Origin: a virus | UHGV virus genome: UHGV-0093507 | DNA length: 24,963 nt | Strand: one strand, 5' to 3' | Shown: piece after piece, positions 13,526-19,507 of the stretch | Position numbering within the stretch: the first letter of the stretch is position 1 | Layout of the letters: every line of letters begins with the position of its first letter | Notes under the pieces: model-generated | The model's database searches: none | The model's input: only the letters and a program-made list of their open reading frames with translations | Told to the model about the DNA's origin: nothing | Made by a program: the position numbers and the translations under genes

Positions 13526-14136
13526 AAAACAGCCTCCATTGATTTCTTTGCTCGTATTTTGCACTTATGAAGTGTGGTCGGCAAGGTGCCGCATCACTGA
13601 CGCGCTTCGCTTGTCTGCTGCTTCGCCGGGGCATAAAAAATTTATGCCCCGACTCTCCAGCTCCTGTATCAATCAGATAATTTCACGACGTCTTCCGACT
13701 TATCGCTATCATCGACGGCCAGACTCTTACACAATCCCGCCGCGCTGACTGCATGTTCTCGCCGCCTCAGTGCGATTTTGACGGCCTTACCTTTCACCCC
13801 ATCAAATCAGAACACCTTACGTCTTTTTCACGCTCAGCGTGAGCGATACAGCCATTCTGTTGTGTCGCTGCGACATCGTTCATGGAATGCTATTTACCCC
13901 CTGAAACGCGGGCTGTTCCCCCGTCACCTGCGCGCAGAAAAAACGCGTTTTTTTGTGCACGCACGGATCCTTGGCGGATCCAGCCGCCACGCGGGCCGGA
14001 AGGGCAAAAAGTCGTTCAAAAAAATTGTGCAAATTTGTGCACAATCTTGCATTAAAATCAACGTTCAGTGGATGTATTTAAGCGAAAAAAAGATCTTTGT
14101 ATAATTTCGTTCGGTTACGTTGGTGAGAGGTTCTGA

Positions 14137-14538
14137 GTGAAAGACATCACATATTGGAATGATAAAATTCAGAAACAAATTGATAGTTATCCTGAAGCTG
14201 TTCGAGAAAGGATAAATTTTGAGCTTGTTGCACTGCAGAGCGATTGTCCTCATTCTTTCGACAGTTTCGATTTTCCAGTGGATGGTGATGATGCCTTGGG
14301 GGTTCCACCTGCTCAAAAAAAATCAATGCGGGAAACGATTGGTCGCTACGCAATGCAATTAACCATCAAGAGTAGTGATTCTTATCGTATGATTTACGTT
14401 GCGAAATTTGCGGAGTCTGTTTACATACTTCATACATTTAAGAAAAAGACAAATGGTGTGTCAAAAAAAGAATATGAGACAGCTGCCGCAAGATACAAAC
14501 AATTAGTGGAGTATCGTCGTAAAAATGGCTTAAGATAG
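14137..14538 (+). CDS. Gp49-like / HigB-like RelE-superfamily toxin candidate
   Basis: GTG start with RBS gagagg upstream. C-terminal motif YRMIYVAKFAESVYILHTFKKKT…KKEYETAAARYKQL matches the Gp49-like (DUF891) pattern. A TATAAT hexamer at 14100-14105 and a ttgtgcaaatttgtgcaca repeat lie upstream. Confidence 0.6.
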   Translation: MKDITYWNDKIQKQIDSYPEAVRERINFELVALQSDCPHSFDSFDFPVDGDDALGVPPAQKKSMRETIGRYAMQLTIKSSDSYRMIYVAKFAESVYILHTFKKKTNGVSKKEYETAAARYKQLVEYRRKNGLR

Positions 14539-14608
14539 CTTGCAGGTATCTCAAATCTGATATAACATAATCAATGTCAGCAACATCGCTGATTAAGGCT
14601 GGAGAGTT

Positions 14609-14926
14609 ATGGAATTCGTCGTAGTCAAAAACCCTTATGCGTCATCAAGTAGCTCTGTAAATGAAGCTAGTGATAAACACATCCGGGCCCAATTAATGGT
14701 TATTATCCGAAAAATGATTCAGGAGCGCGGTCTTACCCAGCGAGAAGCTGCTGAATTGCTGGAAACAACCCAACCAAGAGTAAGCGAAATCATTAATGGT
14801 AAGTTAGATAATCATACCATTGATCGACTGTTTATCATGCTAAACATCCTGGGGTGGGATTTTAAGTTTGGGTATTCCGGTGGGGTTGTTACTGCGACGG
14901 CAGAACATTCCTGTCAGGTTGCATAA
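14609..14926 (+). CDS. XRE-family helix-turn-helix protein, HigA-like antitoxin/regulator candidate
   Basis: 105-aa ORF with HTH signature ERGLTQREAAELLETTQPRVSEIINGK; immediately downstream of the Gp49-like gene (toxin-first HigBA-type arrangement). Confidence 0.65.
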   Translation: MEFVVVKNPYASSSSSVNEASDKHIRAQLMVIIRKMIQERGLTQREAAELLETTQPRVSEIINGKLDNHTIDRLFIMLNILGWDFKFGYSGGVVTATAEHSCQVA

Positions 14927-15284: not shown

Positions 15285-15599
15285 TCATTCAGGAAAAAAT
15301 TCCTGAATATTCTTTTTTATTTGACTTATATTCTGATTTTTGCAACCAACAGGCTCGCTGTTATGCCAGCCCCATATGTGATTGTTGGCAGGCATATTTT
15401 CCCCCTCTGACCATTCAGCCAGCCAGTAAGCAAAGGCAGGATCGTTTTTAATGAGTGCCAGTCCAGCCAGAAATGCCGCGCGTTGCGCGCGGCTGCGTTC
15501 GGAGGCTGGCAGGCTGTCGAGATAATTACACGCTTCCCGTTCACTCTTGACTGCAGCTGGCTTCAGATAGAAACTTATCCGTCTGGTTGGTGTCGTCAT
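15285..15599 (-). CDS. parR: ParR-like partition adaptor (type II, actin-type partition system)
   Basis: ATG at 15599 with AAGGAG RBS overlapping the parM stop. 104 aa; the N-terminal segment RISFYLKPAAVKSEREACNYLDSLPASERSRAQRAAFLAGLAL resembles plasmid R1 ParR as recalled from memory. The track ORF is longer (149 aa, alternative upstream start). Confidence 0.6.
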   Translation of the reverse strand: MTTPTRRISFYLKPAAVKSEREACNYLDSLPASERSRAQRAAFLAGLALIKNDPAFAYWLAEWSEGENMPANNHIWGWHNSEPVGCKNQNISQIKKNIQEFFPE

Positions 15600-15603
15600 T
15601 GGT

Positions 15604-16563
15604 TTACTCCTTGTCCATTGCGTACAGCCCATTAACCAGAGCAAACTGTGGCACCCCGTCCGCGATGAAAGTCGCATTAACTCCGCAGGCTTCGCGGATA
15701 GCGGGTGCCACAATCTCCGCCCCTCCACCGACAACCATCACCCGCCCGTAACCCGAAAAACCCGCCAGCGCGCGGCTCACGCGTTGTTTCAGTGTTTCTT
15801 CCTTTTCACGAATAACCGCCATCAGGCTGTTGTAATGCGCGTCATTGTGGATGTGCTGGCGCAGCCAGGCTTCATCATGGCGATGTTCGATAATGGTATT
15901 GGCGATGTGGTGACTGGTACGCATACCGTTAGTGGCCATCACCGACAGTACGGCATCGGCCATCAGGGAAACGCCTACGTGTGGATCGCAAAACACCTGG
16001 CTGATACCTGCCAGTTGTCCCTGAACCTTTGCCACATCCAGCGTGGTTCCGCCTAAATCCACAATCAGCAGGGATTCAAACGGACTCATGTCAGCCAGTG
16101 CTTTAAAGCCAGCCGGAATGGATTCAGGCATAACCCGCACGTTACGGATAGTGAATGCCTCACCGTTCTGGTACTCCACCGGGCGCATAACGTTTGCTTT
16201 TTTGCGGTTGATGTTGGCCATGTCCGGCTGTGCGTTTGTGTCGAAATATTCGCTCAGTGGCAGGGTGACAACCACATCCACTTCCTGTGGTGTGATGCCT
16301 GATTTGACCAGCGCGTGATGAATGGCAATGACATTCACATCGCTGTACTGGTATTGCGTGTCGGTCGTCTGGACAAAGCGATCACTGACCGGATCAAAAC
16401 CATAGCGCACGCCATCAAGCATGTAGTTCGCGGGCTGCGTGCCACCGAACGGCGCAGACCATTCCGACTTGAAGCTGTTCGGGCTGATGGCGTTGCGGCG
16501 TTCGCCGTTCTCAGTCCATGCCAGCTTGATGTTGGTGGAGCCGTCATCGATACAAATTTTCAT
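15604..16563 (-). CDS. parM: ParM/StbA-like actin-like segregation ATPase
   Basis: 319-aa ORF; N-terminal phosphate-1 motif MKICIDDGSTNIKLAW plus later motifs (PESIPAG, IVDLGGTTLDV, VMVVGGGAE) resemble R1 ParM as recalled from memory; RBS aagga upstream. Confidence 0.8.
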   Translation of the reverse strand: MKICIDDGSTNIKLAWTENGERRNAISPNSFKSEWSAPFGGTQPANYMLDGVRYGFDPVSDRFVQTTDTQYQYSDVNVIAIHHALVKSGITPQEVDVVVTLPLSEYFDTNAQPDMANINRKKANVMRPVEYQNGEAFTIRNVRVMPESIPAGFKALADMSPFESLLIVDLGGTTLDVAKVQGQLAGISQVFCDPHVGVSLMADAVLSVMATNGMRTSHHIANTIIEHRHDEAWLRQHIHNDAHYNSLMAVIREKEETLKQRVSRALAGFSGYGRVMVVGGGAEIVAPAIREACGVNATFIADGVPQFALVNGLYAMDKE

Positions 16564-16597
16564 GTCGCTTTTCCTTATGTTGATTAATTAATCGTTT

Positions 16598-16712
16598 GCG
16601 GGATTCTGAAATCCCGTTTTTGCCTGTTTTATGCGCGCTTCATATATCGCGGCGCGTTTTTTGCTCATTTACGGGATTTGTGAATCCCGTTTCTGTCTGT
16701 TTTTTGTTTCCA
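16598..16712. repeat. Two ~42-bp direct repeats, each holding a 16-bp near-palindrome (gggattctgaaatccc / gggatttgtgaatccc) and a T-rich tail; copy 2 lies inside the 3' end of gene A
   Basis: Copy 1 16598-16640 (tgcgggattctgaaatcccgtttttgcctgtttt), copy 2 16670-16712 (tacgggatttgtgaatcccgtttctgtctgtttt). They sit immediately upstream of parM on its coding strand. Confidence 0.55.
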
Positions 16713-19507
16713 CTGGTCAGGCCACCCCGCAGCAGGTCTGCTTTGCGGCGGGCGCGTTCAGTAGTTTCACTGATTCTCTGTGCGTGCTCTGCGTCGCGGA
16801 TGGCGCGCAGCATGTCAGAAAGCACGGTAACGGGTGTTTTCATGGTGTTCTGGTCCTGCTGAAGTGTGGATGCCAGGCGTGCGGCGGCTTCGGGGTCTGA
16901 TGCCCCCAGCTGTTCCAGATAGCTGGCGACCGGGTTATGGCGGATCTCCGTACTGCTTACGCCGTGGTTACGGCTCAGGCGCTGCCAGAGCTGCGTGATC
17001 CGGCTGTCCGGTCGGGTATCCGGTTTGCGTACAATTTCAAATCCCTGCGGTGCAATGATGCTGCCGTCAACGTACAGACTGCCGCCCCGTAACAGGTGCT
17101 GCATCTGCTGTTCACCGATATGCAGGCCGAGAGATTCAGCAGACTCCCGCCATTCTTTAGCGAGTAATTCGTGGTTATCAGGCAAAGGCCGCTGCTGTTT
17201 GCGGCTCTGTGTCCAGCTCTGCATTTCATCACTGCTGTTTTTTGCCTGTTTGTCACGCAGCGAACGCATCAGCGCCCGGCGTTCGTGCCGTTTCAGTGAG
17301 CGCATCCATTCGTTCACTTCAACGCCGTCAGGGAGCTGCGGCCACGGTGCTGGCCGTTCTTCCGGCTGTTCTGTCCCGTTGTTGTCCGTTTCCTGTACAC
17401 GGGGACAGTTATTGCCACGAGTCCAAGGGGCGGCAGGGCCGCCCTGAAGGTCAAAACCATTTTCGCGGGCGCTGTCTTCCACTTCCGGTTTACGTCTTAC
17501 CAGCTTCCAGTTATCCGGATGCGTGCACACGCGGGAGGATTCCCCGATGAGTGGTGACCAGATCCCGTAAATCTGTACACTCTGTTCGCCGTAATCGTTC
17601 AGCTCATCTGCGAGGTCGTAGGCGGTGCGAATCAGGTAGTCCTTGCGCGGAACAAGTACGCCGCCCTGTTTCTCAATGTAGGTGGCAAAACACCCTGCAT
17701 CAGCGGCAGCGAGTACCGCATCCATTGCGTCATCCTTCAGCCGTTGCGGACCTTCCGGGTTGCGTGCCATCTGGCTGGCAAGGCGGCGCAGTTCACGCCA
17801 CACCTGACGGGAGGGGATGCCAAAGAACTGGAACTGGCGGACCCGGTGAAGGCGCGCCCAGCCGATGGCGCGTTCCACGCTCTCGGCCATTGATTTTCCG
17901 GTTTCGTGGTCAACGCGTGGCTTGCCCGTTTTCGGGTCGATGCCATCCACGGCGCGGCTGTCCAGGTTCTTTCCGATGTAGGTGGCGATGTAGCTGGTTG
18001 GCGTGCCTTTTGAGCCGTCTACGTACTCCGCCTTAAAACGCGGAGTTATGTCATCGCCCAGCTCGTGGCGGTCTTCCTGAATGGCAATATCGCAGACGTG
18101 GGACACGATGGTTTCAATCTCGTCCGGATGTGCAAAGACCATCATATGCCAGTGCACAGTGCCGTCATGGTGAGGCTCCACCGTGCGGATGCCATACCAG
18201 CGCAGACCGTCGCGGTTCAGTTTTTTGCGGACCGCCGCAAAAAACGTGTTAACCAGGTAATCGCTGGAGTCGCGCATGGTGGCCCCGTTCCATTTGGGGT
18301 TCGGATGACCGTTCTCTGTTGTGGCGTGGTATTTTGACGGGCAGGTGACAGTCAGAAACACCGCTCTGTCGCCACGGGCTTCGGCCAGAAGTTCCAGTCC
18401 CTTCATGGTGGCCATCATTTCTGCCTTACGGTGAACCGGGTTACTTACTCCCGCGTAATACACCGTCTCGAGATCAATCGTGAACCCGTCTTCATTTTCC
18501 AGCATGAAACTTTTCAGGAAATCGCGTGTTTTCTCGCGCTGTGCGCGAAACTCGCTTAACGCGTCCTGGCTCAGATAGGGTGATGTTTTTCTGGAAACCA
18601 GACAGGCGGCGCGGAGTTGTTCTTCTCTCCACTCGCAACGTAACAGCCACAGTTTGCGTTTCCACCATTCCGCACAGGTCAGGCGAAGGATTGTGCCCGG
18701 CAGCAGCTCCGTGTCCGGTTCGTTCCTCCGGTCTTTATCTGTTGTCAGTGCGTCATAATGTGGAGGCATGGCGTGCAGGTGTAACGCCATGCGGGCCAGC
18801 ATCTGATACGCCTTCAGCGTTACATCCATGGTCAGTTCGCCATCAGTCGCGCCAAAGCCATCGCAGAGTTTTTCGAAGGTGCTGCTGAACATCGCCGCCG
18901 TCATGGTGGCCAGCGTCTGTATCTGGTGTTTGTTGAGCTGCGGCAGGTAAAGCAAATCGTCCAGGCGTTCGCGTCCGGCAAGGGAGCGATAACCCGGTGT
19001 CAGCCAGCGGCTGTCGGTGCGGTCCAGACGTTCGAATATTTTGCGCAGGGTTCCGCGTGTATAGCGTTCCGCCTGCCAGCTCTTTTTGCCTTTCTGACGA
19101 TCGGCTTCCTGCTTCTTGCGCAGGAAAGAGAGGTGGCGGCTCAGAGGTTCTCGCAGATAAACGGGAAGCGCCTTCAGTGTGGCAAAGGCACGGGCTACCG
19201 GGTCTTGTTCTGTTGCCCGGCGCTTACTGATGATGCTCTGTGCCAGCTTTTCACGCTGTCCGGCTTCCTCAAGGGATGCCATGAGTTTTTTACCCATGGC
19301 GGATTGTGCGAAAAAGGCTTCTTCCTTCGCTTCCTGTTCTTCCTGTGCCCTTTTGTCCGCCTCAAGGTAGTAACGGATGGCGCGTTGCAGGTCGGTTTCA
19401 GTTTCCTGCCTGCGCTCCGTAAATCTGGCCGGATCAATAGCTGGTCGTGGTTCATTCCAGCTCCATGCAAACTCACTCATGGCTGGTATCCCGTCACGCG
19501 CTGCCAC
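16640..19507 (-). CDS. A: Replication initiation endonuclease (P2 gpA-like rolling-circle initiator)
   Basis: 955-aa ORF with HUH-type motif (…DGTVHWHMMVFAHPDE…); last large gene of the early operon. Confidence 0.8.
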   Translation of the reverse strand: MAARDGIPAMSEFAWSWNEPRPAIDPARFTERRQETETDLQRAIRYYLEADKRAQEEQEAKEEAFFAQSAMGKKLMASLEEAGQREKLAQSIISKRRATEQDPVARAFATLKALPVYLREPLSRHLSFLRKKQEADRQKGKKSWQAERYTRGTLRKIFERLDRTDSRWLTPGYRSLAGRERLDDLLYLPQLNKHQIQTLATMTAAMFSSTFEKLCDGFGATDGELTMDVTLKAYQMLARMALHLHAMPPHYDALTTDKDRRNEPDTELLPGTILRLTCAEWWKRKLWLLRCEWREEQLRAACLVSRKTSPYLSQDALSEFRAQREKTRDFLKSFMLENEDGFTIDLETVYYAGVSNPVHRKAEMMATMKGLELLAEARGDRAVFLTVTCPSKYHATTENGHPNPKWNGATMRDSSDYLVNTFFAAVRKKLNRDGLRWYGIRTVEPHHDGTVHWHMMVFAHPDEIETIVSHVCDIAIQEDRHELGDDITPRFKAEYVDGSKGTPTSYIATYIGKNLDSRAVDGIDPKTGKPRVDHETGKSMAESVERAIGWARLHRVRQFQFFGIPSRQVWRELRRLASQMARNPEGPQRLKDDAMDAVLAAADAGCFATYIEKQGGVLVPRKDYLIRTAYDLADELNDYGEQSVQIYGIWSPLIGESSRVCTHPDNWKLVRRKPEVEDSARENGFDLQGGPAAPWTRGNNCPRVQETDNNGTEQPEERPAPWPQLPDGVEVNEWMRSLKRHERRALMRSLRDKQAKNSSDEMQSWTQSRKQQRPLPDNHELLAKEWRESAESLGLHIGEQQMQHLLRGGSLYVDGSIIAPQGFEIVRKPDTRPDSRITQLWQRLSRNHGVSSTEIRHNPVASYLEQLGASDPEAAARLASTLQQDQNTMKTPVTVLSDMLRAIRDAEHAQRISETTERARRKADLLRGGLTSGNKKQTETGFTNPVNEQKTRRDI

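Follow-up and report, generated by a model that had tools for sequence, protein, structure and literature searches.

Paired palindromic repeats at the A-parM junction of P88-like prophages belong to the parM-parR cassette and form a putative parC-like site

What purpose is served by two near-identical palindromic repeats at the point where the replication gene of a P2-family prophage meets its cargo? The question arises from a stretch of 24,963 nt (UHGV virus genome UHGV-0093507, the whole of which is referred to here as the window), in which an earlier note had seen the 3′ end of gene A as partially duplicated, and had proposed that the copies are either a recombination scar at the boundary of a cargo hotspot or a pair of protein-binding or terminator hairpins. 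The window contains a P88-like (Xuanwuvirus) prophage of the P2 family, with a DNA match of 96–99% to Escherichia phage P88 and other Xuanwuvirus records, and its genes are arranged, in reverse orientation, in the order tail/head genes, terminase and portal, cargo, A, early genes and integrase. The non-essential hotspot of P2, which holds tin/old, is located between A and the portal gene, and the cargo of the window lies at the same position of the P2 map, between A and cos/Q. Directly downstream of A, on the same strand, are parM and then parR:

16640..19507 (maximal ORF), minus strand: gene A, P2-family replication endonuclease (Phage_GPA PF05840, E 2.2e-129)
15604..16563, minus strand: parM (StbA), actin-like segregation ATPase, 319 aa (PF06406, E 1.7e-82; PF21523, E 2.9e-68)
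15285..15599, minus strand: parR (StbB), ribbon-helix-helix (RHH) adaptor, 104 aa (PF10784, E 2.2e-25)

Relatives of gene A are called at 940 aa. The cargo past parR (14137–14926, plus strand) encodes, in this order, a Gp49/HigB-like protein (PF05973) and an HTH_37 antitoxin-like protein (14609–14926), a gene pair convergent with parMR. A stem of 9 bp (ATTCAGGAAAAAATTCCTGAAT) with a T-run on the plus strand is located exactly at the parR stop (15287–15308), where it could plausibly serve as a terminator in both directions, for parMR and for the convergent toxin-antitoxin genes. In other family members this cargo position is taken by IS elements, hok, HicAB or a KAP NTPase. Between the variable cargo and the portal gene is a block of ~460 bp (13589–14051) which is 92–96% identical in all relatives, including a par-less prophage, and 77–80% identical in Hafnia; it overlaps a 108-aa ORF (13778–14104) for which no Pfam match was found, and may represent cos-proximal or regulatory DNA.

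A repeat search of the window identified a 42-nt direct repeat at 16592–16633 and 16665–16706, with the copies 79% identical and 73 nt apart from start to start, and each copy contains the palindrome CGGGATT-N4-AATCCCG. Two such palindromes are present in the window versus 0.13 expected even when two mismatches are allowed, none of 100 shuffles reached two, and there is no further occurrence within the 25 kb. The repeat element is not due to chance. This confirms the paired repeats and the gggatt-N4-aatccc stems that had been described before, as well as the T-rich tails, which are on the plus strand, although the spacing of 72 implied by the positions given at that time is one base out of register. 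The element and the leader of parM are composed as follows:

16665..16706, minus strand: distal repeat (copy 2), with the palindrome CGGGATT-CACA-AATCCCG at 16672–16689 (repeat and palindrome searches)
16634..16664, minus strand: central spacer of 31 bp, holding the A stop and an imperfect GC-rich inverted repeat (sequence, folding)
16592..16633, minus strand: proximal repeat (copy 1), with the palindrome CGGGATT-TCAG-AATCCCG at 16599–16616 (repeat and palindrome searches)
16582..16593, minus strand: GATTAATTAATC box (invariant columns G128–T134 of the cassette alignment)
16568..16576, minus strand: ribosome-binding region of parM, AAGGAAAAG (sequence; CATAAGGA common to plasmid R1 parM)

Since A is on the minus strand and ends with the TGA at 16642–16640, copy 2 encodes the C-terminus of the A ORF (...KKQTETGFTNPVNEQ... 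in the A frame) and copy 1 is located just past the A stop, which agrees with the earlier description. The spacer between them keeps its length in the distant cassettes of Plesiomonas and Hafnia (spacing 72–73), where its sequence differs. Its GC-rich inverted repeat was considered as a third conserved hairpin and rejected, as it differs among E. coli loci and neither the Plesiomonas nor the Hafnia-b cassette has it, and TRF detected no tandem repeat array in the element. The parM ATG follows the proximal site at a distance of 52 nt, and the distal GGG-N10-CCC is at −125. A consensus scan for σ70 promoters gave none on the minus strand of 16560–16720, and a weak TTCAGA-16-ATTAAT is readable upstream of parM; the sequence GATTAAT in the GATTAATTAATC box is invariant across the E. 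coli, Hafnia and Plesiomonas cassettes. Judged from the sequence, the box is a candidate −10 region of a parM promoter, and the proximal repeat is a candidate operator overlapping the weak −35-like TTCAGA. Given that this region has no consensus promoter, autoregulation is a conjecture, and transcription of parMR may come by read-through from A.

The distribution of the element indicates which of the adjoining modules it belongs to. It was found in 1303 of 5426 complete E. coli genomes, and the A-parM junction in essentially the same number (1299); every E. coli occurrence of the element is at this junction. The lineage has all but fixed the par cassette, which is carried at ~1456 of the ~1548 chromosomal places that match an A-parM junction query. 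When 2.9 M viral contigs (IMG/VR) were searched without bias for exact matches to the palindrome pair, 93 stretches were returned, 91 of which have the pair directly upstream of a parM start, almost all in the 73-bp register, and a scan of genome contigs with ParM gave three loci, which are near-identical. A par-less prophage of E. coli O145:H28 (L001) has an A gene that is ~92–95% identical in DNA and 91% in protein, yet its homology to the window stops at 16731 and resumes only at 14051, with other genes in place of ~16730–14052 and neither palindrome present. The same par cassette is found next to an A protein of only 31% identity (L044), where BLASTN homology begins at 16705, the first base of copy 2, and next to a different A C-terminus (L174), where it begins at 16704; in both loci the homology extends through parM into parR. 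In a Hafnia locus (L178) a 167-aa ORF other than A precedes parM, and both sites are still present. These patterns assign both copies to the par cassette, as its left end, and show that copy 2 is not A sequence, which overturns the proposed partial duplication of the A 3′ end. The repeats are inherited as a unit with parMR, independently of the flanking genes, and the last ~21 codons of A in the window (16705–16643) are par-cassette DNA.

The overlap with A is incidental. The cassette abuts A, whose frame in the lineage of the window continues across the distal arm and meets a stop in the spacer; the distal repeat, the left end of the cassette, also provides the final ~20 codons of the A ORF. 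In a set of 96 loci, the A frame was seen to terminate at eight different offsets from the distal palindrome (−11, +8, +17, +21, +46, +58, +97 and +98), using three reading frames; the offset of the window, +46, accounts for 79 of these. The edge of the par cassette can be placed to the base, at 16705 of the window, and the gene model is to be corrected in that the last ~20 annotated residues of the endonuclease are incidental read-through into regulatory DNA. The hotspot boundary suggested by the earlier note stands in one respect, since the start of copy 2 is a module boundary, but the variable cargo hotspot is located beyond parR rather than at the A boundary, as it is there that the cargo differs among members of the family. 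The comparison with relatives lacking the cargo, which had been put forward to separate an intrinsic phage element from an insertion scar, came out neither way: par-less relatives do not have the copies, which are therefore not an intrinsic element of A, and the element is internal to the cargo, and is therefore not a scar.

Two loci carry an exact 73-bp deletion that fuses the repeats into one palindrome and changes the C-terminus of A (L002, NZ_CM176886.2, 1690–1940; and L157); as they represent two different haplotypes, recombination between the copies does occur, but copy loss is rare (about 2/154 loci). A degenerate locus (L125, IMGVR_UViG_2874920711_000009) has the proximal repeat alone, joined to unrelated DNA at ...GGA|AAAAACGGGATT, with parM cut to 110 codons. 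An E. coli-type prophage junction with a ParM of 97% identity was also present in a 226-kb contig labelled Vagococcus sp. WN89Y (L007, NZ_JBQPOM010000071.1), which is probably a contaminating enterobacterial contig in the assembly of this Gram-positive organism.

In diverged cassettes it is the DNA of the element that is kept. A Hafnia counterpart (L016) is 68–77% identical to the window in the element and 85–90% in parM, versus 40–68% in the adjoining 3′ coding DNA of A, and maintains the exact 73-bp spacing. The motif GGG-N10-CCC is present twice, 72–73 bp apart, in the E. coli cassette, two Hafnia cassettes and the Plesiomonas cassette, with the proximal motif at −51 to −59 from the parM ATG in all four; the ParM proteins of Plesiomonas (L177) and Hafnia (L178) are 62–63% identical. 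A pair of GGG-N10-CCC motifs at such spacing was seen in ≤5 of 20000 shuffles. Together with the shifting A stops, this pattern indicates that the conserved unit is DNA and not protein. Cassettes of parM-parR between A and the portal gene were observed in P2-like prophages of several genera of Enterobacterales (L177 Plesiomonas, L178 Hafnia, L179 Serratia and L180 Enterobacter), with ParR proteins of 116–134 aa. The upstream regions of the Serratia and Enterobacter cassettes differ, and have inverted-repeat arms of 14–20 nt (GGGAAC..ATAGAAAAAT) at 26–28 bp from each other.

We consider it probable that the two repeats and the 31-bp spacer are the cis-acting upstream region of a type II ParMRC-like cassette, i.e. 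a two-arm, helically phased, parC-like centromere or operator to which ParR would bind. In each repeat, GGG(A)/(A)CCC half-sites would be presented as an inverted pair with phased A-tracts ahead of them, and RHH ParR dimers, or dimers of dimers, would bind both arms, which at a distance of 73 bp, or seven helical turns, would share one face of an intrinsically curved helix. Once formed, the complex of ParR with DNA would repress the parMR promoter beside the proximal arm, and would also act as the centromere, the attachment point for ParM filaments, in a layout that parallels the two iteron arms of plasmid R1 parC. We infer ParR binding, the position of the promoter and centromere activity, and it speaks against this reading that an integrated prophage has no obvious need of a centromere. 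The element shares with parC sites its location upstream of parM-parR, an RHH ParR encoded in the same cassette, repeats in two arms and inheritance together with parMR, but it lacks tandem direct iterons of 10–11 bp.

The parC site of plasmid R1 has two sets of five 11-bp iterons, which bind ParR dimers, bend to a U shape and repress the promoter (PMC2241845), and RHH partition proteins accept both direct and inverted boxes (PMC5016525). We compared the phage element with the R1 parC sequence as taken from an IncF plasmid. Both R1 parC (as well as the stb region of R100/NR1) and the phage element are located directly upstream of parM-parR and have two repeat arms around a centre, and both R1 and phage sites have an A/C-rich sense strand with A-tracts phased at ~10.5 bp; the phage element, its Hafnia counterpart and R1 parC have this periodicity at equal strength (power values 7.4, 7.2 and 7.7; 29, 25 and 23 of 2000 shuffles). 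The RHH ParR proteins are homologous, the Shine-Dalgarno context CATAAGGA is common to the two systems, and the AA(N)CCC core of the phage sites resembles the R1 iteron AACCCA; the R1 iteron AAACCCAAAAAC is found verbatim in the distal site of the Hafnia L178 cassette. In contrast, the 2 × 5 direct iterons of R1 parC, each of 11 bp, extend over 159 bp and its promoter occupies a centre of 39 bp, whereas the phage element has two 18-bp palindromes 73 bp apart in ~115 bp and no consensus promoter in its centre. The recognition strands of ParR also differ (TRRISFYL in the phage versus RRTIAFKL in R1), and the phage locus, unlike that of R1, is part of an integrating prophage and overlaps the end of a replication gene. 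Kinship with plasmid parC at the DNA level was considered and rejected: plasmid parM homologues match only from about codon 3 onward, and pOXA-48-type, F-type and R1-type plasmids carry other repeats in their upstream regions.

Other partition systems provide looser parallels. The omega/parS (pSM19035), ParG/parH (TP228) and pSK41 ParR systems have small RHH dimers which bind short direct or inverted boxes, act cooperatively on phased sites located before the par operon and also serve as repressors (PMC5016525), but they are of type Ib (Walker ATPase) or Gram-positive type II, lack similarity to the phage sites and have many more boxes. The parC of pSK41 consists of tandem 20-mers, and characterised parC sites are direct-repeat arrays, whereas the phage has two palindromic sites only. 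In the AlpAC/alpS system of the Corynebacterium glutamicum prophage CGP3, an actin-like ParM relative, a DNA-binding adaptor and cis sites are reported to serve phage DNA transport and replication rather than plasmid inheritance (PMC5539076). Its proteins, phage family and host phylum are regarded as unrelated to those of the window, and the analogy is a functional and speculative one.

The phage ParR itself is 43.5% identical to R1 ParR over residues 1–62, which represent the DNA-binding N-terminus, and matches the ParR of pB171 (2JD3, E 0.0035). Its N-terminal strand TRRISFYL and C-terminal tail are conserved, with a hypervariable linker between them. Within E. coli both the recognition strand and the sites are constant, and with a strand that never varies in the TRRISFYL group there is no allelic difference with which the sites could co-vary. 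Between families, a strand of the type TRR[IV]SFYL is paired with the GGG-N10-CCC pair in all four cassettes, NRKISFYL (Serratia L179 and Enterobacter L180) with a long inverted repeat in place of the GGG-N10-CCC pair, and RRTIAFKL (R1) with direct 11-bp iterons; on these few independent cassettes, ParR strand and site type appear to co-vary at the family level.

Palindromes of this kind could also be bound by another factor which regulates the A/parM junction, such as Cox, C, Ogr, the HTH antitoxin of the cargo or a nucleoid protein of the host. Palindromes of 18 bp with arms of 7 bp are a typical target of HTH dimers, and several HTH proteins are encoded in the window, but we regard this as unlikely: the sites stay with parMR in phages that differ in A gene, immunity region and downstream cargo, the HigA-like gene is missing from most of those loci, and the restriction of the palindromes to this one location in the 25-kb window is unlike the operator of a global phage regulator. 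Binding of A to the sites is similarly unlikely, because they track parMR and not the A lineage. A role as P2 origin or nick site was also considered and rejected; a P2 ori sequence had no match at up to three mismatches.

A third possibility is that the repeats act as RNA or single-stranded DNA hairpins, either as a plus-strand terminator stack that shields A from antisense transcription of the cargo, or as hairpins for processing or stability of an A-parM mRNA. Two terminator-like hairpins with T-rich tails are indeed present on the plus strand, exactly at the repeats, the 141-nt region has folding z-scores of −4.4 and −4.5, and the hairpin loops are more variable than the arms. Against a terminator, no plus-strand ORF end or promoter-like site was found upstream of the repeats, and the minus strand, which carries A and parM, has no U-tract, the T-tails being antisense to both genes. 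The pairing of the stems is not retained in relatives. In a comparison of 95 distinct upstream haplotypes, anchored on the parM leader and not on the palindromes, there was no compensatory change at any base pair, and one-sided changes were common, with GGGACT in 23/95 distal sites (C.A) and AATCCT in 17/95 proximal sites (G.T); these would wobble-pair on opposite strands in the two hairpins. Full mismatches (A.A, and also A.C) occur as well, and one haplotype carries the same G-to-A change at the matching position of each copy. Only the GGG/CCC pair, across a gap of 10 nt, is left in the cassettes of Plesiomonas and Hafnia-b, with the rest of the stem unpaired, and covariation in the alignment of diverged cassettes was not above that of shuffles (41/500). 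A search of Rfam gave no match at E≤1, and a known RNA family was rejected as an explanation. This conservation pattern fits a duplex site recognised by protein, with inverted half-sites and phase-sensitive spacing, and not a folded RNA or a terminator, and we find a function as hairpins quite improbable. The alternative of protein-binding or terminator hairpins in the earlier note is best supported in its first half, as a probable site for ParR, and weak in its second, given the antisense T-tails and the loss of the stems.

Finally, a non-functional scar, in which the 3′ end of A was partly duplicated upon cargo insertion and the copies persist by descent, would agree with the identity of the copies, the overlap of copy 2 with the A ORF and the occurrence of recombination between them, but is very improbable, as copy 2 is absent from the par-less relative of A and present beside the A protein of 31% identity, both copies lie to one side of the cargo, ahead of parM, instead of flanking an insert, the A frame ends at eight positions around conserved DNA, and the sites and their spacing are kept across genera while the flanking coding DNA diverges and copies are hardly ever lost.

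A parC-like site that ParR would bind is the preferred reading. The element and its ParMR are present in a P2-like prophage in about a quarter of complete E. coli genomes, and our literature search found no paper describing them, and nothing relevant on ParM of P88 or Xuanwuvirus. The ParR alleles of E. coli prophages (P0001–P0090) show 49–95% identity, with nearly all change in a linker of ~30 residues (about residues 65–95), while neither the RHH N-terminus nor the C-terminal ...NI..FFPE tail varies and ParM is kept at 98–99% identity, a pattern that resembles diversifying selection or recombination restricted to the linker. A circular record of 34,461 bp filed as an E. coli plasmid (L182, NZ_CP148288.1) is a complete P88-like genome, which spans integrase to ogr joined as at attP and includes A, parM and parR, and may represent an excised or replicating phage circle or an episomal state.

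The P2-like family is normally seen as strictly integrating. A more speculative and rather doubtful extension is that ParMR and the two-arm site are a working centromere for the phage genome, which would serve to place or separate P2-like genomes after excision or during replication, or to keep an episomal carrier state stable; the hypervariable linker of ParR and the circular record are compatible with this. If true, a site located against, and partly inside, the 3′ end of the gene for the rolling-circle initiator A would couple replication to partition. The probable cis site provides a target of 115 bp for asking what part an actin segregation machine of plasmid type plays in a phage that integrates.
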